From Elusimicrobia bacterium HGW-Elusimicrobia-1 (GTDB lineage: Bacteria; Elusimicrobiota; Endomicrobiia; PHAN01): a DNA stretch of 64,000 bases. The stretch lies in assembly GCA_002841695.1 (NCBI GenBank), contig PHAN01000002.1, forward strand, positions 90,807 through 154,806. The letters are read 5' to 3'. Shown here piece by piece: positions 6,001-58,268 of the stretch. The notes beneath the pieces were generated by a model. That model saw nothing but the letters and a program-made list of their open reading frames with translations. It did not search any database and had not been told where the DNA came from. Position 1 is the stretch's first letter. The number at the start of each line of letters is the position of its first letter. The position numbers and the translations under genes were made by a program.

Positions 6001-6298
6001 CCGCGCCGGCGCGCCGGAGTTTTCCTCGTCGGACGCATCCGTCACGCCGCGCGAAAAAGCGCCGGTCTATTTCAAAGTCGAAAATAATTTCTTCGACGAA
6101 AGATACGTCCGCGCGATAGAAATCGCCATACTGCGCCCTCACCCCGCCCCTCTCCCATCGAGGGAGAGGGAGTTTTTGCCGCATAGTTTCCTCTCCCCTT
6201 ATCAAAAGGGGGATGGCTGCAAATACCCCGTCAAACCTTCGGTTTGCCACCCCTTTAATAAAGGGGAATACAGCCGGGGTATTATTCCCCTCTTTTAG
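5..6298 (+). CDS. Giant secreted GH13-family alpha-amylase-like protein with long FN3 domain array (5' end lies upstream of window; last ~60 codons run into palindromic repeats)
   Basis: Uninterrupted 2097-codon ORF from window edge. GH13-like motifs: GGDFQGV...MGINMLWFAPV, GFRFD (region II), GEIPG (region III), MMENHDETR (region IV). Repeated FN3-type signatures YYYRVRAVDRSGNKS, YYYRIRAIDRRANIG, YYYKIVAIDDSGNTS. Confidence 0.8.
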   Translation: MINSVTVSAGDALWRDAISDQRSDNHSSTQLDISSVGISCDEYNLYMFVAFASTVAANFDGRNFIQIMLDNGLTSTERVFRGRGVGSEDSYVSGDTAWEYLCEIVTDNDVFRVEDSQFSNRNFGGYSEHNDNYFYEVAMPLSNLGGKERFLGKTVNFTVATFWNDNGVVGQWGAGSSNIVDVVTSSGTNTWNEVSDRVVDYYMAITLSTSGAITAVSGATANSVPPMTEPQPDASAPPSALDYMLYNIFVDAWRDGDPANNNPTDTNSYGGDFQGVMDSADYFNEMGINMLWFAPVHQFGGGIWGYNLDDAYQFMSRFGGRDKYIEMAKKVKNRNLKTMLDWVPGQVGGKDSPTGKKYPNYFQDEIFGYGLRQEFAEPRAYMVNNAVWWSSFTDGFRFDNPKFWDNGDGPGRYEFCRVLRFAVDRWNPELYMMGEIPGTVGNFNEYTGSLGPMIHGAIDMASGGYKDAWDHHICAWARPGDAQSRTTIGVRSGLDEQQVTWKNDLSINPVMMENHDETRLISRYRPGGANGEWQQRVAYMTAFLVGGPAKIFYGGEVGLEGPYGGGSSEKMDRNGNVRQMLFNRANEWPWIAVRDSIRRTLQAKANFPELRGDPKKGGRGWYTGGQYDDNVLVVARTWANPDRKSIVMINRSAGNVQMSSVGTGDNNTVYKDWLTDKNFTTNASGILQDNDNTDGDGNLNTFNVDSHNGRILIRGGYDWVNITGSVKDGAGNPVPGAVVDIDRKSHWTTTTDAGGNYSLSGDLRKVLTGNRTIRVWANGFGIVDISTNIVIAGGVNRTQNFTLTADNAPPQPPTNLSGRPRKNAAMIFWQPNTEGDIQSYIVYRSTVSIAAGSFPAPLVEIFSPYYYDNNFDGRINSDGKHVDLLENGATYYYRVRAVDRSGNKSALSNQIAIVPRPIKATFWVDTRDSGQSVASVDVEGDALAFGDTKPERNVRGWTQLFSNGDGTFQRTFDMDDSDFIEYKYVITTSGGGRIGEGDAGHLFNDPAGTNGAENRGEIYLDAIPNVEIRDEGDGTMLLPNVWRWYQDRAPRAPSGVGISAGPNILTTGWTKNAEPDLQYYTVQRSTWNSGFSGAVASVNIGKDQISYVDTNLLNGNTYYYRIRAIDRRANIGDWSSTIWAYPRAADTTAPVSPSGLAAYGSGTNGLGSVEVRWNANYEGDLAGYNIHRSTESEFAPVAANKLNIVLISPSQEPLYTDKNTTTGTQYYYKIVAIDDSGNTSNPSVQLSVKIIPVTFNVDMGNINPSNVQILGNTKPLDWSGTNSLTCPAASTYTITLGFVSGTTLWYRYAYNSASVEEQPFATSSSQYREYVIGYSTAVVSNDWEQNPDMVSGVKVYGGVNKAYLYWDANTTAEDIAGYNIYRSEPPSTTPTLKLNAGPTSYIQPYTVTGLDTGSTYYFSVKAVDSGSQVLESTAASVVPVFISSRVYVHFGIPFSVGQSSAPWGDADKIKMYLAVHNSTDTDLSVWNTSERANVTDGKMVMTASGDGTYRAMVPLAVGNRYNFTFFAQTTNNPPSGLNGNTEYYDTVPDTGSFIVSNSSTGISPPAGVSAVFAPFGITRDARRVLVLPSDIAAGSTMYVFANFGSSPTAPTYIQAVGGNNKVTLYWSAPYGSPWTYPSPEKTGNVPLGGGESMKAADVVAGGVYHIFVTTYNHGSFNSYTATVTLSGGTMNYTFTGLQNGVTYYYLMRSSDTFKGLVGNNFSVLSATVSAQPTSAAVPVSVRVNRGAHPLWKAVRKTIAFQEGTSVPAWDADGKSNITLTGKAVNMVAPADDATEQEFSANLIPGTSYNFILFAYSTFSIAGLETNTTYFDTVPNFGAGGMITSTSTISITGHGKALCGPAGPASDARRILYVPTDLPSGSTLYVYCNFASSPSAVYLSASVVSTFSVQLEWTPYGAWGTSGESLKAADVIAGGHYYVWRSSVSSAGPWNLWVSTSARNWIDADLNAPGDGLGLEAGRTYFYVVVSSDSYSGNFIPNMYRAGAPEFSSSDASVTPREKAPVYFKVENNFFDERYVRAIEIAILRPHPAPLPSREREFLPHSFLSPYQKGDGCKYPVKPSVCHPFNKGEYSRGIIPLF

Positions 6299-6370
6299 AG
6301 GGGTGTCCGAAGGACGAGGTGTTATTCCCCTTTTACAAAAGGGGTGTCCCGAAGGGACGGGGTATTTGAG
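6137..6370. repeat. Cluster of short CCCCTTT-N-AAAGGGG type hairpins (P1-related) overlapping the 3' end of the giant gene
   Basis: Successive inverted repeats: ccctctcccatcgagggagaggg, cacccctttaataaaggggaa, ttcccctcttttagaggggtg, ttccccttttacaaaaggggtg. Confidence 0.6.
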
Positions 6371-6447: not shown

Positions 6448-7584
6448 ATGATGTACAGATTGTTTAGGTTGTTGTTGTGCGCCGCAATGGCCGCGTTAGT
6501 GGGCGCTTCGGCGCTTTTTGCGGCATCGGCCAACGCCCCTTGGGGCGACGCAGCGCAGATACAGGTCGGGGTGGTGATTCATCCGGGTGTCAGCGTCCCG
6601 GCGTGGCCGGAAGTCAACAAAAACGATATAACCGGAGACGCCACATCGTTCATCGTTGCGGGGAAAAGCGCGATGGAAGCCGTCGGAGACGGCACTTACC
6701 AGTTCAGAACCGACCTGGTACCCGGTGGCGTCTATAACTATATCTTTGGCGCCAGGATAATGCAGGGCGCATGGGGGTTCGATGCCGAAAAAGATTACGC
6801 CGAACCTATCCCCGACGGTTCCCAGCAGGACGACTCGGGCAATTACGCGACGAGCGATCCCGGCACTTTCGTATCGCTATCCTCGACGGCGTACTCGTCG
6901 ACGGGCGATGGCGGGGTGTCGTACGTCAATATCGTCGTCGACAACAATGGAAATTCAAGAAGAAAGTTAGATATGCCCACGGTTGATCCGGGCACGACCA
7001 TTTACGTCTTCAACAACTTCGGCTCGCTTCCGCGCGGAGTCGCGAATTACTCTGTGAAGATATCGTCCGGACGGGTGGATCTCAACTGGCAAGGCGCGCT
7101 GGGAACGTGGGGGTCGGGTATGCCTTCCGTCGACGCCCTCGGCGGGAGAAATCTGCTCTACGTCAGCACGTCCAACTCCGCGGGGCCTTACTCGCTTCTG
7201 GCGGATCTCGCCGGAACGGCCACGCATTACGCTCACTCGGGACTTGCCAACGGTACGTCGTATTATTTCATATTCGTCTCATCCGATCCCTACGGAGGTG
7301 TAACGCTGTCCACATACACTGCGTCGAAATCGCTTTGGGCGAATCTTTCGCGCGGCATACCGCCGACCGGCACGATGTGGAACTCCGGCGAATACGCGCA
7401 TAATGATAAATACGGCAAGCCGTCGGGCCCCGTTCCGGTCTATTTCAAAGTCGAAAATATCGACGAGAACTACGTCAGGGAGCACGGCGATCTCGTTTAT
7501 CTGACTCCGTGGCACGAGGACGGCAGATTATACCGACACAAGATTCAGGGCGTGTTTCTTTCCGCTTATCTGCCGAAGGGATGA
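6448..7584 (+). CDS. Secreted protein, paralogous to the C-terminal modules of the giant GH13 protein (unknown function)
   Basis: SD GGGAGG upstream of ATG; signal-peptide-like N-terminus MMYRLFRLLLCAAMAALVGASALFAASA; shared motifs GDGTYQF..YNYIFGA, TIYVFNNFGS, PVYFKVEN with gene 5..6298. Confidence 0.7.
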   Translation: MMYRLFRLLLCAAMAALVGASALFAASANAPWGDAAQIQVGVVIHPGVSVPAWPEVNKNDITGDATSFIVAGKSAMEAVGDGTYQFRTDLVPGGVYNYIFGARIMQGAWGFDAEKDYAEPIPDGSQQDDSGNYATSDPGTFVSLSSTAYSSTGDGGVSYVNIVVDNNGNSRRKLDMPTVDPGTTIYVFNNFGSLPRGVANYSVKISSGRVDLNWQGALGTWGSGMPSVDALGGRNLLYVSTSNSAGPYSLLADLAGTATHYAHSGLANGTSYYFIFVSSDPYGGVTLSTYTASKSLWANLSRGIPPTGTMWNSGEYAHNDKYGKPSGPVPVYFKVENIDENYVREHGDLVYLTPWHEDGRLYRHKIQGVFLSAYLPKG

Positions 7585-7635: not shown

Positions 7636-7720
7636 AAAATCTCCCCTAACCCCTCTTTTTCAAAGAGGGGGAATAAGGGAACAATCCCCCTTTATTAAAG
7701 GGGGATAAAGGGGGATTTTT
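7636..7720. repeat. P1 palindromic element (AAATCCCCCT...CCCCCTTTnAAAGGGGG...AGGGGGATTT)
   Basis: Terminal inverted repeat aaaatctcccct / agggggatttt enclosing two internal hairpins; same family at 39948, 40383, 50775, 58173. Confidence 0.7.
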
Positions 7721-7751: not shown

Positions 7752-8849
7752 ATGAAAAAATCGAAGACGTTTCTATCGGTGGCTCTTTTAGTCGTCGCGT
7801 TTGCGTCGGCGGGTAGGATTTGCGCCCAACTCCCCGCCGGCGCGGGCGCGTTCGCGCAGTGGGGGAATTTCCAGAAAAAAATAGCCCTCCAGCGCGGCGT
7901 CGGCGTAAGCGCATGGGAAGACCGAGGCGACATAAGCTACGAGCAGTACGGGATGTATGCCGCGACGATGTCTCCCGTCGGAGACGGCACGTATCAGATA
8001 AAATTTGATTTGTATCCGGGCGCGGAATATAATTTCGCGTTCTTCGCCGTTTCGACGACGCCTTTGGCCGGCGTCACGACAGGTCTCACTTATTTCGACG
8101 CCGTTCCGAATCACGGCTCGGACGCGGCTTTCATCGCCTCGACCTCGCCCGCGGCGCCGCTTGCTTCCGATACGCGCTCGGCGGAATACAGGTCCATAGG
8201 CGGCGACGCCCGTCGATACGTCGCAATACCGGATCTCGCGCAGGGCACGACGTTTTACGTTTTCAGCAATTGGGCTTCGACCCCATCCGCCCCGACGGAC
8301 CTTCGCGCCCGGCCCGGCGACTCCAAGGTTCATCTTACATGGGGCGCGCCCTACGGCTGGTGGGGCACGGGCTCCCAACAATACAAAGCCATTGATGTAA
8401 TCGCGGGGGGAGCGTATGTTATTTACCGCTCGTCGGTGGCGGCGGGCGGCCCATACGAAATAGTGGCCTCGACTCCCGGACATTGTTTCTCATGGACGGA
8501 TACGAACGTTCAGAACGGAGTGCGATATTATTACGCCGTCTCGTCGAGCGACGCTTACAAAGGCGACGCCGAGGGGGTTCTCGGCGATGTCAATTTATGC
8601 TCGGACGCGGCGTCGTCACAGACGCCGGGAGCATCTCCGGGTCAGGCGGTTCCGATAAGATTCAGAGTCGAAGGCATCGACTGGAAGGTGATAAAAGAGA
8701 AGGGTTATCTCGCGTGGCTCACGCCGAACGCGGCTTCGGATGGGGCGCCGCCGTGCCCGCCCGCAAGAATCCCCGCGCGGCTCGTCGAAGTAAAACTTTC
8801 GAAAACATTGAAAGACAGAATAAGTGATGCGATTAGATGGTTGTTGTAG
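7752..8849 (+). CDS. Secreted protein of the same module family (unknown function)
   Basis: Signal peptide MKKSKTFLSVALLVVAFASAGRICAQ; motifs GDGTYQIKFDLYPGAEYNFAFFA, TYFDAVPNHG, TTFYVFSNWAS, PIRFRVEG shared with 6448..7584 and C-terminus of 5..6298. Confidence 0.7.
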   Translation: MKKSKTFLSVALLVVAFASAGRICAQLPAGAGAFAQWGNFQKKIALQRGVGVSAWEDRGDISYEQYGMYAATMSPVGDGTYQIKFDLYPGAEYNFAFFAVSTTPLAGVTTGLTYFDAVPNHGSDAAFIASTSPAAPLASDTRSAEYRSIGGDARRYVAIPDLAQGTTFYVFSNWASTPSAPTDLRARPGDSKVHLTWGAPYGWWGTGSQQYKAIDVIAGGAYVIYRSSVAAGGPYEIVASTPGHCFSWTDTNVQNGVRYYYAVSSSDAYKGDAEGVLGDVNLCSDAASSQTPGASPGQAVPIRFRVEGIDWKVIKEKGYLAWLTPNAASDGAPPCPPARIPARLVEVKLSKTLKDRISDAIRWLL

Positions 8850-8906
8850 TGTAGGGGGCTTTATGTTCGTAACAAATTTACGTATTTACGCCCTGTAGTG
8901 TAGGGG

Positions 8907-9080
8907 CTTGTCCCCGTAGGCAAAAGGACTTGTCCCCGTAGGCAAAAGGACTTGTCTCCGTAGGCAAAAGGACTTGTCTCCGTAGGCAAAAGGGCTTGTC
9001 CCCGTAGGCAAAAGGGCTTGTCCCCGTAGGCAAAAGGACTTGTCTCCGTAGACAAAAGGGCTTGTCCCCGTAGACAAAAA
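8907..9080. repeat. Tandem repeat, 8 copies of a 22-bp unit (cttgtccccgtaggcaaaagga), ending at the RAYT start codon
   Basis: Eight head-to-tail units with few substitutions, no spacers; first unit overlaps REP-like gtagtgtaggggcttgtcccc. Confidence 0.85.
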
Positions 9081-9538: not shown

Positions 9539-12215
9539 ATTACGCCCGTGTAGTGTAGGGATTTATGCCCGTAACAAATTTGCGTATTTACGCCCACAAG
9601 GGGCTACATTGCATACGTATTTACGCCCGCAAGGGGCTACACTACTGTTATTATTTATTTGCAATTTGCTTTATGCTCTTGAAATCGGAACTCCTGCGGG
9701 TGAGACGGGCGGCTTTGCGACGCAGCAGAAACATTTTTACGGCGACTATCTTTCGTCGGGCTCGCCTTCGGACTCCGTTTGGAGTTCGTCGGCGGCGATG
9801 ACACGCGAGGCGCTCGCCGACGGCACGACGATATACTTCGCGGACATTCCGGTAACGGCGGGCAACACCTTTTACTACTATTTTAAAACTCAATCGTCGG
9901 GCGAGCAAAAAACGCCGGTATACAGAACTATCTACGTCAGCAGTTCGAATCCCGGCGAAATTATCGTCGACGGAACGGCGTATCCGGCGGCGGGTCTCGT
10001 TGCGGCGGCTACGGTCTGGCACAACTTCTCGGACGCTCCGCCGCCTCCGGCCAATCTCACTTCTTTCTGGTCAGCCGCCAACGACTTCGTATCTCTTGAA
10101 TGGGACAACCCGCTTTTCGACGGAACCGCTGTTTTCGATCTTACGGGCGGAGGCGGTTATGAGATATGGCGCTCAAGCGTATCGTTTTCCGACGGTATGG
10201 CCGTGATATCTTCCGTCACGGCGATTTTAAGCCGCATGAGTTTTCCTGATTCGTCCGTCGAGGCGGGCGCGACTTATTATTACCGCGTCCGCGCCTACGA
10301 CGCGTATCTTCCGCCAATGCTTTCGTCTCCCGCGCAAACTTCGCCCGCATCGAAAAGAAATTACGTCACGGTTGCCCTCGAGGTCGACGTATTCGCGCTA
10401 TCGGGAGTAACCGGGGTTTCCGTTATCGGAGATTTCACCTCGCCGCCGTTTTACAAAGGCCGTCTGAGTATGGATTACGCCGGCGGCGGCAAATGGCGGC
10501 TCGAACACGCCGACGCTTCGCTTTACTCCGGAGCGCTCATCAAATACAAATATCTCGTCAACGGCGAACTTTATGAACCCGATCTGCCGCCTGCGCTCGG
10601 AGGGCCGTACAGAAATGTCGCGATAAAGGATGAGGGTTCGCGCAGAATGACTATTAAAGACGTCTGGTCGGTCTGGACTCCGACGGGAACGCCGTCGAAC
10701 CTGCCGCGGTTTATGACGGCTTTTTCCGCCGAGCCGTCCGCCGGCGCCGTCAAAATCACATGGGACTGCGACCCCTTTTCGACGGGCACTCTTCTGGGTT
10801 ACGCACTTGAGCGCTCGTCGTTCGCCGCCGGCGGTTATTCCGTAATATCTTCGCCGGATATCCTGGGCCCCGCGACATTCTACTACTCGGACGTCCTCGC
10901 CGACGGCTCGACGGCTTTCTACAGGATCGCCGCCGTATCCTCGTCGGGACAATGGTCGGAGTTCTCCGATGCCGTAAAGGCCAATCCTCCGTCCGTCGGG
11001 GAATCTCTGCCGCGATACAATCCCGCCGCCCAAGAGGTTTTCGCGGCGGGCGATTTTATTTGCGATATCGGTAATCTGACGGGTGAAGTCATACTTGCGT
11101 GGAATGCCGCGTCTCATGACGCGGCCTACGGCGCGGCGAGCGCATACATTGTCAAATACGCGACATTCCCGATAATCGGCGCCGATTCTTTTCATCGCGC
11201 AAAGACCGCCGGCGCGGCGCGCGGTTTGCCGTTGGGCGCGACGGGGCGTCTGACGACTTTGAACCTCGGCGGGGACTGCCCGGGTTTTTACTTTGCGGTC
11301 TGCGCGGTCTACGGCTCGTGGCACGTCGTGGGATTTTCAACTTCCGTCGTGGCGGTAGCCCCCAAGGCCTTCGACGCCAAGGATGGCGGCCTCGTCGTCA
11401 AAACGTTGCGTTTCGCGGGATCCTCGCCGGAGGCGCCGAGCGTGGCGGCGATGGAGTTTCCGCCGGGTGCGCTTCAACAGGGCGAATATCTCGGAGTCAT
11501 AAAAAATCTCGGGGAATTACGGCTCGACGGATCGGTCGCGGCCAAGATAGACGCGGCCAATTCACTCGCCTCGCGTGATGCCAGATTCGGCTATGTCGCG
11601 GATAACGAGAACCTTGCGTCGTCGAGCGTTTTCGCTTTCGATCTTTACGATTCGGCGAAAAACGATTACTTTAATCCCGTCGCCGGCAGAAGAGCGCGCA
11701 AAGACATAGTCGTCTCGCTGTCTTACGCAGGGCTGTCCATTGTGCCGGAGGAGTTGAAAGTCGCGCGCCTCAACGAAAAAAACGATTTCTGGCGGATACT
11801 GAAAGATATCAAACCCGATATAGACCGCGACGCCAAGCTCATAAAGTTCAAAACTAAGGAACTCTCGGTCTACGCACTCTTTCGCGCGCCGGCTCCCGCC
11901 GCCGATCTTTCGAACGTAGCGGTTTATCCGAACCCCTTCAAGCCGCACGACGGCTTACGCGAAACGGGCGACTATTCGACGGGAATCAGATTCACCAACC
12001 TCACACGGAACGCGGATATCAGGATTTATAATATAGCCGGCGAATTGGTCAGATACAAAGGGCTTGAAGCCGACGAGATCGGAGAGTGCCGCTGGGACGC
12101 CATGAACGACGACGGTGAACGCGTCGCAAGCGGCGTTTACATTTTCATTGCGAAAGATGAAAGCGTCAAGGTCGGCAAAAACCATTTCACAGGAAAAGTG
12201 GGAATTGTAAGATAA
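9528..12215 (+). CDS. Large FN3-containing surface protein with C-terminal FlgD-Ig/T9SS-like sorting domain (start codon uncertain; N-terminus encoded by REP sequence)
   Basis: 895-aa ORF; FN3 signature ATYYYRVRAYD; C-terminus AVYPNPFKP...IRIYNIAGELVRY...WDAMNDDGERVASGVYIFIAKD...GKVGIVR. Confidence 0.7.
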   Translation: MNFKLRPCSVGIYARNKFAYLRPQGATLHTYLRPQGATLLLLFICNLLYALEIGTPAGETGGFATQQKHFYGDYLSSGSPSDSVWSSSAAMTREALADGTTIYFADIPVTAGNTFYYYFKTQSSGEQKTPVYRTIYVSSSNPGEIIVDGTAYPAAGLVAAATVWHNFSDAPPPPANLTSFWSAANDFVSLEWDNPLFDGTAVFDLTGGGGYEIWRSSVSFSDGMAVISSVTAILSRMSFPDSSVEAGATYYYRVRAYDAYLPPMLSSPAQTSPASKRNYVTVALEVDVFALSGVTGVSVIGDFTSPPFYKGRLSMDYAGGGKWRLEHADASLYSGALIKYKYLVNGELYEPDLPPALGGPYRNVAIKDEGSRRMTIKDVWSVWTPTGTPSNLPRFMTAFSAEPSAGAVKITWDCDPFSTGTLLGYALERSSFAAGGYSVISSPDILGPATFYYSDVLADGSTAFYRIAAVSSSGQWSEFSDAVKANPPSVGESLPRYNPAAQEVFAAGDFICDIGNLTGEVILAWNAASHDAAYGAASAYIVKYATFPIIGADSFHRAKTAGAARGLPLGATGRLTTLNLGGDCPGFYFAVCAVYGSWHVVGFSTSVVAVAPKAFDAKDGGLVVKTLRFAGSSPEAPSVAAMEFPPGALQQGEYLGVIKNLGELRLDGSVAAKIDAANSLASRDARFGYVADNENLASSSVFAFDLYDSAKNDYFNPVAGRRARKDIVVSLSYAGLSIVPEELKVARLNEKNDFWRILKDIKPDIDRDAKLIKFKTKELSVYALFRAPAPAADLSNVAVYPNPFKPHDGLRETGDYSTGIRFTNLTRNADIRIYNIAGELVRYKGLEADEIGECRWDAMNDDGERVASGVYIFIAKDESVKVGKNHFTGKVGIVR

Positions 12216-12257: not shown

Positions 12258-13250
12258 ATGAGAAAATTGTGTCTTTCGACTAGTGTTTCGACGGCAACTC
12301 GCGGACGAGGACGGCCCCTGCGACGGATTGCCCTTGTCCTTGCCTTTACTATCCACTATACACTGACCACTAACCACTCTCTACACGCCGCCGGCACGAC
12401 ATCCGCGACTTTTCTTAAACTCGGTGTCGGGGCGAGACCGGTGGGGATGGCCTCGGCGTTCGCAGGCGTGGCCGACGACGTCAACTCCGTCGCATGGAAC
12501 CCTGCGGGGCTCGCCTCAGTCGACGCGAAAGAATTTTCGTTTATGCATCTTGAACATTTTCAGGACGTGCGCTACGATTCGCTGTGCTATGCTCATCCTA
12601 TGAAAAAAACGGTCGTCGCATTCGGCTTTGGCTATCTGTATACCGACGAGATAACAAGGACTTTCATAGACGACGATGTTTATGCGGGTTTTCGCGCGCA
12701 GGGAGATTACCGGCTCCAGGATAGGACGTTTTTTGTTGCGGCGGCAAGACGAATCTCCGATGATAAGGCCGTCGGAGCGCTCGTCAGGTGGCTTTCGGAG
12801 AGGATAGAAGATAATGAAGCGACGGGGCTCGCCGCCGACGTCGGATATCTTCATCTCGTGACGGACCGTCTCGCGTTCGGTTTGTCCGTCCAGAATATCG
12901 GCGGGACGATAAGATTCATCGCGGCCGACGAAATGCTGCCGCTGACTTTTCGCGCGGGCTTCGGATATGACGTTGTCGCCGGAAAACTCAAACTCGCGCT
13001 CGACTTCGTCAAGCCCGTCGACTATCAACTTTCGATCAATCTCGGCGCCGAGTACAGGGCGTTTGACGCGCTCGCCGTCAGAGGCGGATGGAGCTTCAAA
13101 GATTTGTTCTACGACGACCGGCTTAACGGAACATCCGGCGCGGCTCTGGGGATGGGGTTTTCTTTTCACAATTATTCTCTTGACTACGCTTTCGCGCCTT
13201 ATGGAGAGCTCGGTTATTCTCACAGAATATCGTTCGGGGGAAAGTTTTGA
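12258..13250 (+). CDS. Beta-barrel outer-membrane protein, PorV/PorQ- or PorP/SprF-like
   Basis: N-terminal motif LKLGVGARPVGMASAFAGVADDVNSVAWNPAGLA; alternating beta-strand-like pattern; C-terminal ...ISFGGKF (terminal Phe). Confidence 0.6.
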   Translation: MRKLCLSTSVSTATRGRGRPLRRIALVLAFTIHYTLTTNHSLHAAGTTSATFLKLGVGARPVGMASAFAGVADDVNSVAWNPAGLASVDAKEFSFMHLEHFQDVRYDSLCYAHPMKKTVVAFGFGYLYTDEITRTFIDDDVYAGFRAQGDYRLQDRTFFVAAARRISDDKAVGALVRWLSERIEDNEATGLAADVGYLHLVTDRLAFGLSVQNIGGTIRFIAADEMLPLTFRAGFGYDVVAGKLKLALDFVKPVDYQLSINLGAEYRAFDALAVRGGWSFKDLFYDDRLNGTSGAALGMGFSFHNYSLDYAFAPYGELGYSHRISFGGKF

Positions 13251-13254
13251 AAAA

Positions 13255-13425
13255 GCAGGGTTTAGAAAGACAGGGTTTAGGGCATAGGGTCTAGGGTTTA
13301 GTAAAATGAATAAAAAACAGAGTATAAAAAAGACAGGGTTTAGGGTTCAGGGTTTAGGGGTTAGGTTTTTTTTCTTTTTTCTTTTTTCTATTTTCTATCC
13401 CCTAACCCATAGACCCTATACCCTG
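13255..13425. repeat. Leader palindrome P3 built from GGGTTTAGGG-type units; contains start codon and signal-peptide coding region of 13306..15414
   Basis: cagggtttagggcatagggtctagggtttag ... cagggtttagggttcagggtttaggggttagg ... ctatcccctaacccatagaccctataccctg; near-identical copy at 22629-22772. Confidence 0.75.
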
Positions 13426-22628: not shown

Positions 22629-22772
22629 TTAGGGTCTAGGGTTTAGTAAAATGAATAAAAATATAGAAAAGACAGGGTTTAGAAAGGCAGGGTTTAGGGT
22701 TCAGGGTTTAGGGGTTAGGATTTTTGTTTTAATTTTTTTCTATACCCTAACCCCTAAACCCCATGCCCTGCT
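22629..22772. repeat. Leader palindrome P3 (second copy), overlapping start of 22651..23760
   Basis: gttagggtctagggtttagtaaaATG...cagggtttagggttcagggtttaggggttagg...ctataccctaacccctaaaccccatgccctg. Confidence 0.75.
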
Positions 22773-36465: not shown

Positions 36466-36545
36466 GTAGTGTAGCCCTTTATGGGCGTTTCTTTATGGGC
36501 GTTTCTTTATGGGCGTTTATTGACGGGGACAAGCCCCTACACTAC
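36466..36545. repeat. REP-family palindrome plus 3 tandem copies of ctttatgggcgttt
   Basis: gtagtgtagccctttatgggcgtttctttatgggcgtttctttatgggcgtttattgacggggacaagcccctacactac. Confidence 0.7.
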
Positions 36546-39321: not shown

Positions 39322-39924
39322 ATGTCAAGAAAACTCCTTAAAATTTCCGAAGCCGCCAAACTTGTAGGCGTCCTTCCATCCACAATCCGTTACTACACCG
39401 ATATCGGACTTTTGAAGTCAAGCGACGAAACCAAAGGGGGGCACCGCCTCTACGACCCCGACGACGTCGCCGCGATCGTAAACAAGATAAAGTTTCTCTC
39501 GGCCCGCGGACTCACTATGGATGCCATAAAAAAAGAACTCGCCGCCGGCAGAAAATCCAAAAAAATACTGGTGATAGACGACGAACCGGAGGTGGGAAAT
39601 CTCGTCAGGGATGTCGCCGCCGAGAAGTTCCCCGACGCCGAAGTCAAAATCGTCTACGACGGGTTCACCGCCGGCCGCGCGCTGTCGGATTATCTGCCGG
39701 ATTTAATAGTGCTCGACTTGATGCTTCCGGGGATAAACGGTTTTGAGGTCTGCAAGCAGATTCGCGCAAGCAAGTTTATGAACGGCGTAAAGATTCTGGC
39801 CGTAACGGGTTATGATACGACGGAAAACAAAGAACGCATAATGAAATCGGGCGCCGACGATTATCTGGCCAAACCTCTTGAGGTGGCGGCTCTGGCGGCC
39901 AAGATTAAGAAGATGATATTGTGA
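39322..39924 (+). CDS. Response regulator with N-terminal MerR-type HTH domain fused to a CheY-like receiver domain
   Basis: LLKISEAAKLVGVLPSTIRYYTDIGLL (MerR HTH); receiver KILVIDDEPEV...DLIVLDLMLPGINGFEV...KILAVTGYD...GADDYLAKP. Confidence 0.8.
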   Translation: MSRKLLKISEAAKLVGVLPSTIRYYTDIGLLKSSDETKGGHRLYDPDDVAAIVNKIKFLSARGLTMDAIKKELAAGRKSKKILVIDDEPEVGNLVRDVAAEKFPDAEVKIVYDGFTAGRALSDYLPDLIVLDLMLPGINGFEVCKQIRASKFMNGVKILAVTGYDTTENKERIMKSGADDYLAKPLEVAALAAKIKKMIL

Positions 39925-39947
39925 TTTTTTTAAGACGTATCCGTAAG

Positions 39948-40027
39948 AAATACCTCCCCCTTTGGAAAAGGAGGATTGAGGGGGAAATCGGCCTCCCCCT
40001 TTTTAAAGGGGGAAAGAGGGGGATTTT
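39948..40027. repeat. P1 palindromic element
   Basis: aaatacctcccccttttggaaaaggaggattgagggggaaatcggcctccccctttttaaagggggaaagagggggatttt. Confidence 0.7.
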
Positions 40028-40033
40028 AATTTT

Positions 40034-40383
40034 ATGATTTTGCCATACAGTCCCAAGTTAAAATCATATTCAAGAGAATTAAGAAAGAATATGACGGATG
40101 CCGAGAAAAAAATATGGGGAAAACTCCGACGGAAGCAATTAAAGAAATGTCAATTTTACAGACAAAGAGTGATAGGTGAATATATAGTGGATTTTTTTGT
40201 TCCTCCGCCAAATTGGTCATCGAAATCGATGGCGGCCAACACTATACGAAAGATGGTATGGGCAGAGATAAGATCCGTGATGATTACATTAAAAATCTCG
40301 GTGTCAAGATATTAAGATTTACGGACAGAGAAGTTTTACAAAATATTGATTTAGTGGTTGGGCAAATATATGAAAATTTGTAA
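40034..40383 (+). pseudogene. DUF559-family endonuclease-like gene disrupted by a frameshift in a T7 homopolymer (or a homopolymer sequencing error)
   Basis: N-terminal LRKNMTDAEKKIWGKLRRKQL...FYRQRVIGEYIVDFF in frame 1; shifting +1 after the T run gives CSSAKLVIEIDGGQHY...GVKILRFTDREVLQNIDLVVGQIYENL ending at 40383; AT-rich. Confidence 0.7.
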
Positions 40384-40462
40384 AAATCCCCCTGTGTCCC
40401 CCTTTAAAAAAGGGGGATTAAGACATTTCGTCGAGCTCCCCTTTTAAAAAGGGGGAATAGAA
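40383..40462. repeat. P1 palindromic element
   Basis: aaaaatccccctgtgtccccctttaaaaaagggggattaag...gctccccttttaaaaagggggaat. Confidence 0.7.
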
Positions 40463-40564
40463 AGCCGCACCCCAAAGATTCTTGTGATTAACGACGAGAC
40501 GGAAGCACGGAAGATTAAGAAGATATTATTCTGATAGGAACGAACAGTCGGTAACTTTGGGTTA

Positions 40565-43500
40565 ATGATGGTTAAACGGATTTTTGCCGCTATCGGAGTT
40601 TGGTTTTTTTTGACGCTTTGCGTTCTGCGCCCCGCCTTTGCCACAACCAATAATACGATAACCATAGACGCCGCCCTCGCCGACTGGCAAAGCAATGAGG
40701 CGCTCGGCACTTCTTTCGGGCAATTTTATTTCACATGGGATGCGAGCAATTTTTATTTTGCTTATAATCGCGGCGGAACTTTTACCGCTGACCCGGATGT
40801 TGTCTGGATTTATATCAGCACAGTAGCGCCAACATCTACCGCCGGAACTTTTACTTCGGTTGATTGGACTGGCACCCATACACTTCCCTTCCGTGCAGGA
40901 TACGTCTATTTATTCAGGCCCAATGCCGAGTATAAAACCTACAGAAATTGGACCGGCTCGGCTTGGTCGGGAGATTGGGCGGGGAGCGCAACTACAAGCC
41001 AGAATTATGGCAGTGGTATAGTAGAGATAAAAATACCCAGAGCAGATATCGGCAACCCTTCTTCAATCAGGGTTACCATGTATATCACTAACGGGTCAAA
41101 TAACTATGTTTTTGGAACTACCCCGAGGGAAAATCCCAATGGCGCGACGGGAAGGTTGATGGGTTTGTCTTGGTATTATCCTAATTGCTCATCCACGGGA
41201 GTGTTCCCGAATTTAATTAGGTACAGATATCCGGGGGTTGTTATTGCTGATGTGTCGCCAAATGCAGGCGCGGCCGGGAATGATTATGTCACACTGTATA
41301 ATCCAAATGACGAGGCATTATATTTAAGTAACCTGCAATCGCATCATGGTTTGCCGACCGGATTAGTGTTGCGCTTTAGAACATATAACGGAGCAACGGG
41401 AACAAATAAAACACTGACTGTGGTTTCTACAAATACGATCTCCTCGCGAGGATTTTCGTTACTCGCATCCGGGACACCGCCGAAAACCGCCGATATAACT
41501 TTTGCTGCTGGGCTGGATACCTCAGATGACGGGGTGGTGATAGCGTATTCCAATACGACAACATTTGGCACCGACACATGGACATTGACCGATCTTTTTG
41601 GATGGGGGGGGCAAACAGTCGCCCTTGAAGGTAGCGCTCCCGCCAATCCTGGCACCGCCGATAGTTTTCAAAGAAAAGCATGGTCAACAACCGCAAGTTC
41701 CGCATCCATGCGTCTTGATGGCGAGGACACATACGCGGGGCATTTCATGGATACACACAACAACTCAAGCGATTTTGTGACCCTGATAAGTTCGTACATT
41801 TCAAATAATAGTTCGGATCCCCGCGAAGGATTCCTCGGCCAGTGCTGGCACATACCGGACAACACCTCCGATTTGGGCGGCATATCAATGCGCAACCCCC
41901 TGACGTATATTTATTTAAACACGCCCACAACTTTTTATGTAGGCAATTATTTTCAAGGAACCGGAAACCCGGGCGATATGTCGGGCGGGACGCTTTATTA
42001 TAAGGCAAAAACGGAACCATCATGGAGTTCCGTTTCTTTTGCCTATGATTCAACATCCGGCAACAATAAATACTGGCGTGCTCTCCTGAATAATTCTTAT
42101 ACAGCGGGGACAACCGTTCAATATTATATCAGCGTAGCATACGCGGACAGCCACGACACCACTCTTCTGTATTACAGCGGCGGACAAAGCAGAAGATGTT
42201 ACGAAACATACATTGCCACGAATACGCCTTCCGAGTTTATTGTTCAGGCGGACGCCGCGCCGGATCCCATAACGCCTACGCTGTCGCGGGCAGATGAGAT
42301 GGGAGCGAAAATTTACGTTACATGGGCAGCCCAGGGCGGGATGGACGGCTACAAAATCTATCGCTCATCCGTATCCGCGATAACGAACGGCAATAGGGGC
42401 GACGCAAGCCACCCCCTCGACGGAACGGCTACGCCGAGCGCCGCGGAATCGTACACTACGTCCGCCCTATTGCCCAATACCACTTACTGGTTCGCCGTAT
42501 GCGCCTATAAAGACGCCGTCGAGGGCGACGTCGGTTCGGCGGTTGCCATACGCACCGCCAGAATCTCGATAGACGGTTCCGCCTCCGACTGGGCGACCTC
42601 CGTGGAGTCGCCGTGGGTCAATGAATCAACGACCACGCTTGCATCCGGCTCCGGCACAGTTCCTTATTACGAATGGTCGTGGCGCGACAAGGCGTGGGAG
42701 CAAAGAACCGATTCCGCTCAGGACGACCGCAATTTCGACCTCAGGAATTTCCGCGTAGCCGCCGACGAGGAATACATTTATTTTTATACGAAATACGACA
42801 ACATCACCGATAAGGATTTTTATCATTTTGCGGTCGCCATAGACACGGGCGGCGCGACGGGATTAAATTGGCTCGGCGACGATTCCAACTCCGACACGAA
42901 CGGCGGCACCGCTATGGGCCTCGGCGGCGAATACGTCGGGGCGCTCAAAGCGGCGGCCATACTGGCTTTCCGCTACATTTCCACAGCCGGCACGGATTTC
43001 AGGATACATATGTACAAAAACGGCGGTTCCGGATGGGACACGCCCGCGCTCACCGGAGCCGGAAACACTGCCTGCTGGCTTACCACCGGCGACGGCGGAT
43101 GGATGGAAGCCAAAGTCCGCCGCTCCGACATAGGCGCCGCCGGAATCAAAACCCTGAAATTCTCCGCCGCGGTTTTCGAGAATCTGTTGGGACTCATAGG
43201 CGACGTGGACTCGACCAAATACTACGCCCCCGACGCACTCGACGCGATGTCCATAGCGCGTATTTCCGCCGCTTCGACCTACAACGATTCGCAGTGGGGT
43301 ATGAACTCCTGGGACGAGGACATATCCGATTCCGACGCGGATTTCTGGGCGCAGGCGCAGATAGACGCCTCGGGCCTCAAAATTAACCAACCTCCATCCG
43401 CGCCGTCTCTTTCGCTTCCCGCCGATGGCGCGGGTGTCGATATATCCACGCCGGCTTTTTCGTGGAGCGACAACGGCGACCCCGATTCTGGCGACGCAGT

Positions 43501-47932: not shown

Positions 47933-48883
47933 ATGAAAAAATTCTCATCGACAGGGTCATTGTTTATTCTCTTGTTTATCGTTTTTACTATCCACTACCC
48001 ACTAACCACTAACCACTGTCTTTACGCCGCCGGTCTCTCGTCTCCCAACGCCTCGATGTATCTGGGTAACCTTAAAATCGGCCAGACGTATTCACTCAGA
48101 CAACTGCTGGGCTACCCATTCAAAGCCACCTACAAAGGACGCTCAATGGCCGACCTGTCCATAAGCGTGATCGCGCTGTCCACCGCGACATCCGACGGAT
48201 ACGAACCCATCCCGTCCAACGACTGGATAGAAATCGAACGCTCGCATTTCTCTCTCGATCCGGGCCAGACCGCCGAAACCGACATCCTCATAAAAATCCC
48301 CGACGACACCGCGCATCTTGACAAAAAATATATCGTCATAATACAGCCACAGTCGGGCGCGCCGCGCGCCAGCGGAGCGGGCATTGTTTTCGGCACGGCG
48401 CTCAGGTGCCAGTTGCGCCTCGACATAGCCGCGCTTCCTCCCACGCCGGACGAAATCCGGCAGTTACGGCGCCTTCGGCACGGACAGTCGGTCGGTGTGG
48501 TTGTGTCTCCGGAAAGAATTTTCGTAAACGAAATCGAGGCGGGAAAAAAGATAGACGTCAAAAAAACTTTCGGCGATGTTATAAAAATAGTGAACTCGTC
48601 GGATTTCGACGTAGAGGCCGTCATAGAGTCCGCCGACCCCGCCAAGTTCGGGATGTTCGCCCCGTCGGGTTATGAAACCGCCCCCGATCACAAATGGCTT
48701 GTGCCCGCAAAAAGAAAAATCAAGATTCAGAAAAACCGCATAGCCGAGGCGCCGGTTACCATAAACATTCCTTCCGGCCCGGAACACGAGGGGAAAAGCT
48801 ACTATTTCGCCATTGCCGTAACCGTCAAATCGCCCATAAGAGAAGTCAATCATCTGGTCAGATTCTTTGTGGATATGAAGTAG
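47933..48883 (+). CDS. Secreted protein A1 of duplicated two-gene cassette (unknown function)
   Basis: ATG 47933 with GGAGGA 5 nt upstream (track start 47921 is TTG); leader SLFILLFIVFTIHYPLTTNHCLYAA; paralogous to 51140..52039 (NLKIG, GYEPxP, HLxKKY, ISAPSGY shared). Confidence 0.7.
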   Translation: MKKFSSTGSLFILLFIVFTIHYPLTTNHCLYAAGLSSPNASMYLGNLKIGQTYSLRQLLGYPFKATYKGRSMADLSISVIALSTATSDGYEPIPSNDWIEIERSHFSLDPGQTAETDILIKIPDDTAHLDKKYIVIIQPQSGAPRASGAGIVFGTALRCQLRLDIAALPPTPDEIRQLRRLRHGQSVGVVVSPERIFVNEIEAGKKIDVKKTFGDVIKIVNSSDFDVEAVIESADPAKFGMFAPSGYETAPDHKWLVPAKRKIKIQKNRIAEAPVTINIPSGPEHEGKSYYFAIAVTVKSPIREVNHLVRFFVDMK

Positions 48884-48925
48884 CAGTGGTTAGTGAAATA
48901 AAAAAAAGTGGTTAGTGGATAGTAA
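48884..48925. repeat. P2 arm copy
   Basis: gcagtggttagtgaaataaaaaaaagtggttagtggatagt. Confidence 0.6.
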
Positions 48926-48948
48926 AAATGAAAAAGGGGGGGAATAGT

Positions 48949-49326
48949 ATGATAGGAGTTAGGAGTTATAAAGATTTAATAATCTGGCGAAAAAGTATGG
49001 AACTTGTAAAAATTGTGTACAAAGCGACCAGTAGTTTCCCGCAAAAAGAATTATTCGGATTGACAAATCAGATGAGAAGGGCAGCCGTATCGATACCTTC
49101 AAATATAGCGGAAGGGCAGGCCAGAAACCATACGAAAGAATTTGTGCAGTTTCTGTATCAGGCGTTGGGCTCCCTGGCGGAACTTGATACACAGGCAATA
49201 ATAGCCAAGGAACTGGGTTATCTAAAAGCAGTGGATAGTGGTGAGTGGATAGAAAGACAAACTGCCGAACTTCAAAAGATGACACACGGCCTACTCAAAA
49301 AACTAACCGCTATAGACAGTGGATAG
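48949..49326 (+). CDS. Four-helix-bundle protein (family formerly called 23S rRNA intervening-sequence protein)
   Basis: SYKDLIIWRKSMELVKIVYK...FGLTNQMRRAAVSIPSNIAEGQAR...ELDTQAIIAKELGYL; AT-rich; start at ATG 48949 after GGGGGG SD preferred over 48928. Confidence 0.8.
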   Translation: MIGVRSYKDLIIWRKSMELVKIVYKATSSFPQKELFGLTNQMRRAAVSIPSNIAEGQARNHTKEFVQFLYQALGSLAELDTQAIIAKELGYLKAVDSGEWIERQTAELQKMTHGLLKKLTAIDSG

Positions 49327-49410
49327 TGGCGAGTGGTTAGTGGATAGAAAGGGCAGTGGTTAGTTTTTTGTTTTTACTATCCACTATTCACTAACCACTA
49401 ACCACTGCCC
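49318..49410. repeat. P2 hairpin, terminator-like
   Basis: gggcagtggttagttttttgtttttactatccactattcactaaccactaaccactgccc (13-bp perfect outer stem). Confidence 0.7.
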
Positions 49411-49668
49411 CTAAAAAACCCTTGACTTTATATAATTATTTTGCTATATACTGTATATCAAACAGGAAGCATACTTCTTAATTTAACATCTTGAATAAAA
49501 TGAGACGTGGGTTGGCCCGCCGAAGAAGGGCAGGAGGTGAAAAAAGGTCGTATGATTCAATCTTTAAAAAGCAATAGAGAAAAAGAGCTCGCGGCGTCGG
49601 TGGTGACGGAGTGCGCACCGTCATCCGTGACAGGCGCGGGCAAAAATCAAAAGGAAGAGGGAGGATTT

Positions 49669-50349: not shown

Positions 50350-50630
50350 AGATTAGTCACAGCAGTTTAAGGTCAGCGTAAGTTGGTCTTTGGTATCCCG
50401 CCGTAGTCCGGCGGGACTCCATAGGTTAACAAAATTACTCCCCGTAGAGGTAGACTTCCGTGTCCGCCATCATGGACGCGAATGTTTTCGGGTGTCATTT
50501 TCCCGAGACGTTTGCGACCCCGGAATTATCGGTGGCGCCGATGAAGTCGGCGCCCCATCTGTTTAAAGATTATTTTGCCGTCGCGGCTATGCGCCCGACG
50601 GCTTTTGTTTTTTATAGCCGAATAAACGAT

Positions 50631-51000
50631 TTTGCCGGCGGATGCGGTTGTCTATTCTCTACGGGGAGAAAAAACATCACCCATTCGCCGGCCTTCTTTT
50701 TTGCGGAGCGGAGGTCTATCTCTACGGGGAGAAACGCCTGCCGCTCCGCTTACTATTTTGCAGAAACGCGTCGGGAAAATCCCCCTGTATCCCCCTTTAA
50801 AAAGGGGGAATATCGCACCTCCCCCTTTGGAAAAGGGGGACTGAGGGGGATTTCAAAAAACCATTTTGCCGGCGGACCGGAAGTTTGCCTCTACGGGGAG
50901 TGCATCACTACCGGTCCCGCCGGCTTACTTTTTTTTGCGGACGGACACGAACGTCGAACCTCTACGGGGAGGCAGTACGCATCGCCCGTCCGCATCTTTT
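50631..51000 (+). repeat. Array of four ~70-bp hairpin units with conserved loop motif CTCTACGGGGAG and covarying stems, interrupted by a P1 element (50775-50853)
   Basis: Loops at 50657, 50721, 50890, 50961; stems gccggcg/cgccggc, gcggagcgg/ccgctccgc, gccggcggaccgg/ccggtcccgccggc, gcggacgg/ccgtccgc; each unit followed by a T run; reverse-complement motif ctccccgtagag at 50438. Confidence 0.7.
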
Positions 51001-51056
51001 TCGGGGGGCGTACGAGCCGCCCCTTCAACTATCGGGGGCGGACACGGTTGTCTATT

Positions 51057-51090
51057 ATCGGAGTTTATCCCCGCGAAGGCGGGGAGGGAG
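51057..51090 (+). promoter_or_regulatory. Conserved leader motif TCGGAGTTTATCC-hairpin-GGGAGGGAG, ~50 nt upstream of start codon
   Basis: tcggagtttatccccgcgaaggcggggagggag; copies at 56353-56384 and 58101-58136 with compensatory stem changes. Confidence 0.5.
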
Positions 51091-51139
51091 AAAAACACCG
51101 CCGCGTACCGCCCCCATATTTTCTTATCGGAGAAATATT

Positions 51140-56274: not shown

Positions 56275-56352
56275 GATAACAAGAATTTTATGGACAATAA
56301 CAAATATATTTATCGGCGCGTCGCTTCATCGGCGGGCAAACCCAAGTCAATC

Positions 56353-56384
56353 TCGGAGTTTATCCCGCCACAGGCGGGAGGGAG
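56353..56384 (+). promoter_or_regulatory. Conserved leader motif (second copy)
   Basis: tcggagtttatcccgccacaggcgggagggag, 53 nt upstream of ATG 56437. Confidence 0.5.
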
Positions 56385-58074: not shown

Positions 58075-58100
58075 TATATCGGCGGGACACGGGGTCTACA

Positions 58101-58136
58101 TCGGAGTTTATCCCGCCATAGGCGGGTGGGGGGAGG
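58101..58136 (+). promoter_or_regulatory. Conserved leader motif (third copy, diverged)
   Basis: tcggagtttatcccgccataggcgggtggggggagg. Confidence 0.4.
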
Positions 58137-58172: not shown

Positions 58173-58268
58173 GAAATCCCCCTGTATCCCCCTTTTAAAA
58201 GGGGGGTTGAAAGAGATTGTCGGGTGAAGTTCATCCCCCTTTGAAAAAGGGGGAAAGAGGGGGATTTA
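58173..58268. repeat. P1 palindromic element
   Basis: gaaatccccctgtatcccccttttaaaaggggggttgaaag...catccccctttgaaaaagggggaaagagggggattt. Confidence 0.7.

Follow-up and report, generated by a model that had tools for sequence, protein, structure and literature searches.

Here we describe a small gene of the DUF559 family that lies between copies of a structured repeat, P1, in a stretch of 64,000 nucleotides from Elusimicrobia bacterium HGW-Elusimicrobia-1 (contig PHAN01000002.1, positions 90,807 to 154,806 of the forward strand), hereafter the window. Gene and repeats arrived together in the lineage of the window, within a block at 39925-40510, and the pairing of this DUF559 subfamily with repeats of the triplex type is conserved across phyla, the repeat class following the clade of the protein. 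On balance we favour, without great assurance, the reading that the block is a horizontally acquired mini-cassette and that the pairing is a nuclease-repeat partnership of the kind formed by REP repeats and the REP-associated tyrosine transposases (RAYT). The link between DUF559 and the repeats appears to be new; the kind of repeat to which P1 belongs is already known. Position numbers are those of the window, and loci numbered with an L are comparison contigs from related or other genomes.

An earlier note on this DNA had pointed to three AT-rich genes, each lying between copies of a repeat family, and all three layouts are found where it had placed them: the DUF559 gene, a RAYT gene and a gene for a four-helix-bundle protein, with a GC content of 34.6%, 28.5% and 41.9%, respectively, against 53.7% for the window. 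The block that carries the first of them stands between the genes of a response regulator (RR) and of a giant surface protein, and is laid out as follows.

39901-39924, plus strand: left copy of the duplicated 3′ end of the RR gene (AAGATTAAGAAGATGATATTGTGA), from a 25-nt direct repeat 88% identical to 40511-40535
39925-40510, plus strand: inserted block, 586 nt, 39% GC, missing in related genomes
39955-39988, plus strand: outer imperfect triplex-type arm, TCCCCCTTT-GG-AAAAGGAGGA-TTG-AGGGGGAAAT, with one stem mismatch
39994-40027, plus strand: gene-facing triplex-type arm, made of pyrimidine block TCCCCCTTT (39994-40002), loop TT, purine block AAAGGGGGA (40005-40013), 3-nt linker AAG and mirror purine/T block AGGGGGATT (40017-40025); 9/9 positions fit the G.G / A.A / T.A rule
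40034-40383, plus strand: DUF559 gene (Vsr-like PD-(D/E)XK endonuclease), frameshifted at a run of seven T; the repaired product has 116 aa
40384-40417, plus strand: downstream gene-facing triplex-type arm in reverse-complement orientation, 9/9 rule positions, starting right after the TAA stop
40437-40456, plus strand: plain hairpin TCCCCTTTT-AA-AAAGGGGGA, third block absent
40470-40510, plus strand: 41 nt resembling a receiver domain (PKILVINDETEAR, in frame), not in empty sites
40511-40535, plus strand: right copy of the duplicated RR 3′ end, aligning with the RR stop and spacer of L214

Around the gene, an inverted repeat of 33 nt (39995-40027 / 40383-40415) is 91% complementary; its left half stops 6 nt before the ATG and its right half begins at the last base of the stop codon.

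Five related contigs, reached by way of RR protein homologues, differ in what follows the RR gene.

L214: RR 89% identical to that of the window, 30 nt from the RR stop to the ATG of the giant gene, without P1 and without DUF559
L215: RR 77% identical, 11 nt from the RR stop to the giant-gene ATG
L216: RR 78% identical, 36 nt from the RR stop to the giant-gene ATG
L217 / L218: RR 75% identical, 22 nt from the RR stop to the giant-gene ATG
L213: RR 86% identical, entire block present, with identical junctions, eight T at the run and an intact DUF559

Thus, in four related genomes the RR gene directly adjoins the giant gene, with neither P1 nor DUF559 between them, and in these empty-site alleles the RR 3′ end is single, not duplicated. 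When aligned with L214, positions 40511-40535 and the next 29 nt correspond to the ancestral RR gene end and its spacer; therefore, the insert is 39925-40510, between two copies of the last 24 nt of RR, and the RR gene of the window (39322-39924) now takes its last seven codons and its stop from the left duplicate copy.

The block is also much younger than its surroundings. Over its core (39925 to ~40469) the window and L213 share 96% identity, differing at 21 of 545 columns, against ~80-88% for the RR gene and less for other flanking sequence, and the receiver-like stretch 40470-40510 shows intermediate divergence, with 5 differences in 41 nt. Synonymous divergence (dS) between the window and L213 is 0.12 for DUF559, against 0.72 for the RR gene and 1.42 for the first 900 nt of the giant gene; for the RR gene it amounts to 0.62 between the window and L214 and to 0.84 between L213 and L214. 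The three genomes are roughly equidistant and one of them is without the block, and what the other two have in common is six to twelve times younger than the adjoining genes; therefore the block was transferred horizontally in one piece, with both of its P1 copies. This supports, for DUF559, the suggestion of the earlier note that gene and repeats are mobilised together as a mini-cassette; its other suggestion, that the repeats are preferred targets of integration, may still hold at other loci.

The junctions are less simple. The left boundary is sharp, at the RR stop codon, and the insert overshoots the repeat ends by 29 and 48 nt of non-repeat sequence, including the receiver-like fragment, which is 77% identical to the start of the receiver domain of the RR gene itself. 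A clean target-site duplication was considered for the 25-nt repeat and ruled out, given that the right copy is the ancestral RR end and that the insert carries these additional 29 and 48 nt. The duplicated RR end may come from a long staggered cut or from one-sided homologous recombination. An integron cassette was also considered: GTTRRRY is absent at the repeat ends (AAATCCCCC...GGGGGATTT), and a scan for an integrase, limited to the neighbouring genes, found none there. The stretch 40470-40535 reads PKILVINDETEARKIKKILF*, that is, a receiver-domain start fused to the ancestral RR gene end, and in L213 the gene caller predicts a 54-aa open reading frame (ORF) over the matching sequence. In one population (L229 / L239-L248), a DUF559 gene 68% identical to that of the window is found between cheA, at its receiver-domain end, and cheB, at its receiver-domain start; these receiver domains recall the flanks of the insert described here, which may be a coincidence or a hint of the donor context.

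As it stands in the window, the DUF559 reading frame falls into two parts, 40034-40315 and 40213-40383: at 40192-40198 there are seven T in a row, and an intact frame requires eight, as found in L213 and in the homologue L011. Once one T is added, the protein matches PF04480 with 120.5 bits (cut-off 20.6) over profile positions 2-108 of 109 and PDB 3HRL with E = 1.3e-18, and it has all columns that are invariant in a 20-sequence alignment (D-F..C, E.DG..H, D, R-F core; R17, T21, E24, W28, R43, Q44, Y50, I51, D53, F54, C56, E64, D66, G67, D79 and R95). The seven-T run is present in all six public assemblies with the neighbouring RR, each identical to the window over 39880-40580, and therefore the frameshift is not a read error of one assembly. 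The gene has been broken only recently, by the loss of one nucleotide in the run, and to judge from the sequence this copy may be a decaying or slippage-dependent allele, possibly phase-variable, with some residual expression. The sequence at the frameshift, GAT TTT TTT G, also corresponds to a classic slippery heptamer of the -1 type, at which a -1 shift restores the conserved DFFCSSAKLVIEIDGGQHY.

The earlier note had described P1 as palindromic. The hairpin stands, the simple palindrome does not: beside each hairpin there is a third, mirror-symmetric purine block. Along an arm, a pyrimidine block and the purine block complementary to it enclose a loop, and a 3-nt linker then leads to a mirror purine/T block, in which A is either kept or replaced by T. 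In all the loci fetched, a third block of full length adjoins 344 of 450 distinct pyrimidine/purine hairpins on one side, against a mean of 11.7 and a maximum of 21 in flank shuffles and 100 in the direct-register control; the linker is of 3 nt in 284 cases, and the rule is obeyed by 49 different stems. Taken by themselves, the DUF559 loci, whose selection did not depend on repeat sequence, give 157/217 hairpins with a third block against a null of 6. A third block repeating the purine arm directly was tried and rejected, since the mirror rule fits 334/436 asymmetric stems and the direct register only 90. In the window, 8/13 pyrimidine/purine hairpins obey the mirror rule, and arms with 9/9 rule positions and a 3-nt linker are located at 39994-40027, 40384-40417, 50776-50809, 50820-50852 and 58234-58266. 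Such a layout is the design of an intrastrand purine-motif triple helix, and the P1 arms are thereby putative triplexes as far as block order tells, the folding tool used being one that models hairpins only. No Rfam family reached its gathering score in the window, and 39800-40600 gave noise only; therefore no known structured RNA accounts for P1 or for the second hairpin family considered below, P2.

Repeats of this kind have long been known in Escherichia coli under the name of BoxC, later as PIT elements and as the TM or TMECO motif (Holder et al., 2015, PMC4666352; earlier work by Bachellier, Hoyne and Maher as cited there). The TM motif forms a stable triplex in vitro and was found in more than 260 genomes, the in vitro evidence being that for TMECO only; E. 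coli MG1655 has 23 TMECO copies, some of them as inverted pairs of two unlike types (PMC4666352). P1 agrees with these elements in its block order of pyrimidine, loop, purine, 3-nt loop and mirror purine (the class II purine motif), as well as in being intergenic and multi-copy, in occurring as single arms or as two unlike arms inverted, and in the strain variability of its loci. Nevertheless, P1 stems contain A/T (TCCCCCTTT / AAAGGGGGA / AGGGGGATT) and T.A triplets rather than following the CCCTCNCCC consensus, and only one arm of the window, at 6134-6170 on the minus strand (stem GGGAGAGGG, third block GGGGTGAGGG), fits the TMECO consensus CCCTCNCCC-N3-6-GGGNGAGGG-N3-GGGNGAGGG of PMC4666352. 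P1 is thus, by its predicted fold, a different sequence class of the same structural kind. A further difference is that the published work has no associated mobility gene: transposase or integrase remnants were "never found" at TM repeats, and the flanking genes showed no common functional class (PMC4666352). Here, a family of genes is tied to the repeats.

The window by itself says little in this respect. Clusters of the P1 type occupy about six of its intergenic sites and P2 hairpins at least eight, and an ordinary gene (6448-7584) likewise lies between P1-type arms, so that flanking by repeats, judged in these 64 kb alone, is not beyond chance; therefore, it is to other genomes and to the empty sites that one has to look for any significance. 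The caveat of the earlier note that the repeats might be too abundant for their position to mean anything consequently holds within the window and fails outside it.

By scanning one genome per species, 79 DUF559 loci were gathered, 38-66% identical and spread over more than 20 phyla, and at almost all of them a P1-like type of element stands on either side of the gene. Intergenic regions adjacent to DUF559 carry an arm in 109/153 cases and the other intergenic regions of the same loci in 12/220 (odds ratio 43, p = 2e-43). A strict triplex arm is found at no more than 150 nt from the gene in 64/79 loci, and several of the 15 loci that fail the strict definition have a variant with an extra hairpin between the second and the third block. 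The distance from arm to start codon is 6-50 nt, and overlap with the stop codon is frequent; in many loci both sides of the gene carry a copy of a whole repeat unit, in some cases together with sequence next to it, the duplications measuring 45-73 nt. Moreover, on both sides the strand that bears the pyrimidine, purine and mirror-purine blocks points its 3′ end toward the gene. The extra-hairpin variant, in which a second GC-rich hairpin (e.g., TGTCCCGAAGGGACG) replaces the 3-nt linker between the purine and third blocks, was also seen in the window at 6270-6370 and in L034, L041, L059, L060, L074, L081 and L085, and it recurs beside DUF559 genes in several phyla. The neighbouring gene is on the DUF559 strand upstream in 55/75 loci and downstream in 43/78, figures not clearly unlike ordinary gene order.

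The sequence class of the arms tracks the clade of the DUF559 protein and not the host, and differs within one phylum. The clade of the window, with representatives in Elusimicrobiota, Actinomycetota, Syntrophus, Dehalococcoidales and Nitrospirae and at a che-operon locus, has third blocks of the sequence GGGGGATT; in a second clade (Hydrogenedentota, Saprospiraceae) they read GGGGGATGT, and in a large one, to which another Elusimicrobiota genome belongs, GGGGTGTGT.

In the reverse direction, a search of metagenomes with the arm motif ATCCCCCTNNNTCCCCCTTT returned at least 120 loci from very diverse environments, and a DUF559 ORF was present in 2/120 among the matches listed. The repeats, then, far outnumber the genes. 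Some arms stand alone, others form tight pairs whose third blocks point outward, and still others are arranged differently; gene-less pairs with third blocks facing inward were found in 14 cases. Nesting of other genes between inward-facing arms was examined in the 120 repeat loci listed and set aside, as these were just ordinary genes between two repeat-bearing spacers. In turn, the DUF559 gene is usually single-copy and at a fixed place: two proteins with identical copies (P0002 and P0008) have each one genomic context only among the matches listed, and for the DUF559 of the window the protein collection yielded no paralogue exceeding 69% identity. On these two grounds, recent transposition within the genome in the manner of an insertion sequence was rejected. 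Since the repeats vastly outnumber the genes, the relation resembles that of REP and RAYT rather than that of a transposon with its ends.

The window happens to contain a RAYT with its repeats, which is a standard one.

8846-9079, plus strand: upstream REP copies (GTAGTGTAGGG, twice), then a 22-nt tandem repeat in eight copies, reaching the RAYT start codon
9080-9538, plus strand: REP-associated tyrosine transposase gene (NF047646 REP_Tyr_transpos, 111.8 bits, cut-off 80)
9541-9645, plus strand: downstream REP copies, beyond the RAYT gene

The GTAG-tagged palindromic repeat GTAGTGTAGGG is located at 8846, 8895 and 9550, and once more at 36535. The eight copies of the 22-nt unit (GGGCTTGTCCCCGTAGGCAAAA) extend over 8904-9079, between the upstream REP copies and the gene. 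Besides sharing the window with this pair, the DUF559 cassette is likewise a small single-copy nuclease gene flanked by cognate structured repeats that outnumber it; the triplex-type repeats also form doublets of two unlike arms, their class follows the DUF559 clade, and the gene keeps a stable position within populations. The differences are that the DUF559 fold is PD-(D/E)XK, Vsr-like, and not HUH/Y1, that the triplex-type repeats lack the GTAG tag and possess a third, mirror-image block, and that the partnership of DUF559 with its repeats is derived from position and co-variation.

In E. coli both partners are present. TMECO #9 (1351204-1351239, minus strand; PMC4666352, Table 1) lies 168 nt downstream of ycjD, the DUF559 gene of MG1655 at that place, and the stop codon of ycjD sits in another, degenerate triplex-type hairpin. 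In L206 (E. coli K-12 NC_000913.3, 1351204-1351430), about 39 nt of the ycjD 3′ end are duplicated downstream, between the stop-codon hairpin and TMECO #9, which echoes the duplicated gene end around the cassette of the window. Some lineages have ycjD "in place of" eefRABCD, an operon otherwise located between fabI and sapF, and the study that notes this concludes that eef was lost at least twice (PMC12817139). The ycjD allele was found in 3346/5426 complete E. coli genomes; that 38% of the genomes lack the locus was only an apparent result, which was discarded, as they have the eefRABCD operon there instead. Among the papers searched that name DUF559, COG2852 or ycjD, none was found that links the gene to triplex repeats. 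DUF559 genes have been reported as enriched among predicted targets of programmed inversion, with an odds ratio of 14 (PMC9881135), and I-Bth0305I, a homing endonuclease of a group I intron, is a member of the Vsr/DUF559 group (PMC3424549). A broader proposal, that small chromosomal DUF559 proteins, YcjD among them, are cognate, structure-specific single-strand nickases which create, spread or maintain the BoxC/PIT/TM repeats, is put forward only tentatively, and we hold it to be rather less probable than not.

As to how the favoured partnership would work, the DUF559 nuclease would recognise the folded single-stranded form of its cognate arms and would nick next to them. Vsr-type enzymes nick DNA. 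Such nicks could set off the copying of repeats or their gene conversion, in which the enclosed gene would now and then take part; this would account for the cognate arms that the gene always keeps at both ends. The geometry of the arms, with their 3′ sides toward the gene on both flanks, fits this proposal and is suggestive.

Several points weigh against this reading. No small DUF559 protein is known to act on triplex repeats, the link coming from position and co-variation only, and the co-variation of arm and clade would also be expected if gene and arms merely travelled together. In vivo footprinting saw no triplex formation (PMC4666352), and E. coli genomes without ycjD still give TMECO-like matches, according to a rough count of megablast places. 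The ends of the insert differ from the ends of the repeats, and the 24-nt host duplication looks like recombination rather than like a defined transposition chemistry. Of the two marks of insertion to which the earlier note had looked, empty alleles were found, even though they are repeat-less, and target-site duplications were not, none being seen around 28 solitary P1-type units. Copies of the gene devoid of flanking repeats, which the same note had named as adverse if found in this genome, are the minority among chromosomal loci and the rule on viral contigs, where 7/80 DUF559 homologues have arms in a profile scan that reaches distant homologues; a single-protein scan of viral contigs gave no DUF559 match. 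Therefore, the pairing belongs to the small chromosomal DUF559 subfamily and not to the domain as such.

The alternative that survives best is that DUF559 acts as a free-standing homing endonuclease, which would cut the gene-less arm junction or another specific site, the gene being then copied in by repair with the arms as homology. The block occupies the identical position in two diverged lineages and is absent in a third, it is much younger than its flanks and has a sharp left boundary at the RR stop codon, as expected of such an element; many loci have the order repeat unit, gene, repeat unit, and the 14 gene-less pairs of inward-facing arms could be seen as its targets. In addition, a Vsr-like homing endonuclease is known (PMC3424549), and at one site the eef operon has given way to ycjD, apparently on more than one occasion (PMC12817139). 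Genes of the I-Bth0305I family thus share with the cassette a related nuclease fold, presence or absence at a fixed site and an age lower than that of the flanks. However, the empty alleles have no arms, which leaves no obvious arm-based target, the gene is single-copy in spite of many arm pairs in the same genome, and the transfer of alleles by ordinary homologous recombination would give the same pattern. The cassette also differs from those genes in having neither intron nor intein nor a defined target, in being embedded in dispersed repeats and in remaining single despite many potential repeat sites. We regard homing as unlikely.

A somewhat less probable alternative is that the gene is a passenger of fragile sites: the repeats would be prone to recombination, and DUF559, being often transferred, would land or be kept there with no functional link. 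In E. coli, variability is raised at the TM loci, which are more rearranged than control sites (PMC4666352), and the junctions of the insert are recombination-like, with their 24-nt duplicated gene end and foreign flanking pieces. Yet other genes in the same loci are rarely beside arms, as the figures of 12/220 against 109/153 indicate, the empty sites at the locus of the window have no arm, and it is the DUF559 clade that arm class goes with in different phyla, more than one class being present in a single phylum.

It is improbable, in turn, that the arms serve the cis-regulation of the gene, controlling its transcript or promoter, for example, to silence a toxic nuclease, with the dispersed copies as unrelated by-products. 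The distance of the arms from the start codon, their frequent overlap with the stop codon and the G-rich third block at the place expected for a ribosome-binding site in the copy of the window would suit this idea. Against it, purine-motif triplexes do not form in RNA, and PIT elements have neither promoter nor terminator activity (PMC4666352); hundreds of the same arms are away from any DUF559 gene, and the symmetry around the gene points to DNA and not to a transcript. Finally, chance adjacency in a repeat-rich genome, for which the commonness of P1 and P2 in the window and the presence of at least one ordinary gene flanked by P1-type arms would speak, is highly improbable, being refuted by the cross-genome enrichment, by the empty sites with a block younger than its flanks, and by boundaries within a few bases of the start and stop codons.

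Described already in the 1990s and present in hundreds of genomes, the BoxC/PIT/TM repeats have been linked to genome instability and have long been unexplained. If the partnership with DUF559 is true, it provides a candidate partner enzyme for them and a testable role for a family of small nucleases. Furthermore, if DUF559 were the cognate nickase, it would stand, in more than 20 phyla, for a second system like that of REP and RAYT, one independent of HUH enzymes, and the genomic instability reported at triplex-repeat loci would find an explanation.

The third gene between repeats belongs to an element that is a lineage-specific insertion.

48881-49411, plus strand: four-helix-bundle element, with an arm at 48884-48925, the gene at 48928-49326 and a full heptamer hairpin at 49304-49411

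The product of 48928-49326 matches PF05635 with 129 bits (cut-off 33.8) and TIGR02436 with 128.5 bits (cut-off 24). The arms are made of AGTGGTT/AGTGGAT heptamers, terminal inverted repeats (CAGTGGTTAGTG...CACTAACCACTG, at 48884 and 49407) bound the element, and the ORF upstream of it ends on a TAG stop that the first three bases of the element provide. The element is missing in L249, a locus on the contig that also holds L214, and in L250, where about 135 nt of unrelated sequence are found instead. In one population, one assembly has a 122-aa homologue with CAGAATT/ATTCTGA arms between mcp and cheA, which in the other assemblies are 2 nt apart, with the homologue absent; the mini-cassette idea of the earlier note is thus supported for this gene as well. 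Four homologues on viral contigs lie each between inverted arrays of 7-8-mers of lineage-specific sequence, and the same design, an ORF inside terminal inverted repeats, was found in L207-L210 and L245. P2 hairpins without a gene are common in the window, and the relative has a shorter one at an orthologous site.

This design recalls the intervening sequences of 23S rRNA, which carry an S23p/four-helix-bundle ORF in terminal inverted repeats (Ralph and McClelland, 1993, as conveyed by PMC4990558). As far as that account goes, the likeness consists in a small AT-rich ORF inside terminal inverted repeats that form a long stem, in a sporadic distribution from which horizontal transfer has been deduced, and in the protein family, to which the product of 48928-49326 also belongs. 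In contrast, the element of the window lies between protein-coding ORFs and not in rRNA (the window contains neither rRNA nor any other Rfam family), its arms are tandem heptamer arrays whose sequence varies by lineage, and many gene-less hairpins like its own are dispersed in the genome.

RAYT with REP, DUF559 with triplex-type repeats and the four-helix-bundle gene with heptamer hairpins are, altogether, three gene-repeat partnerships of one general design in one genome, which suggests a general design for persistent intragenomic replicators.

Solitary units of the P1 type, which are non-coding relatives of the cassette arms, are found in the window at three places.

7636-7720: P1-type unit of two inverted arms with third blocks outward
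50776-50855: P1 unit with the same arm class as in the cassette, z = -5.3, absent at the L249 counterpart
58173-58267: P1 unit, z = -6.2

Other repeats were noted in passing. A third hairpin family, of AGGGTTT/AGGGTTC heptamers (13241-13404 and 22630-22744), has the P2 design in another sequence, and no small gene adjoins it in the window. Around 50440-51100, upstream of a gene starting at 51141, there is a non-coding region of 700-1000 nt of tandem hairpin units with the motif CTCTACGGGGAG (e.g., TTTGCCGGCGGACCGGAAGTTTGCCTCTACGGGGAG...), with no Rfam match, whose number of units differs between the window and L249 (4700-5700). Lastly, a family with a GC hairpin, CGGAGTTTATCCCGCCnnAGGCGGGAGGG, stands upstream of several genes (51051-51087, 56346-56382 and 58094-58130) and is shared with L249, at about 5290 and 5630.

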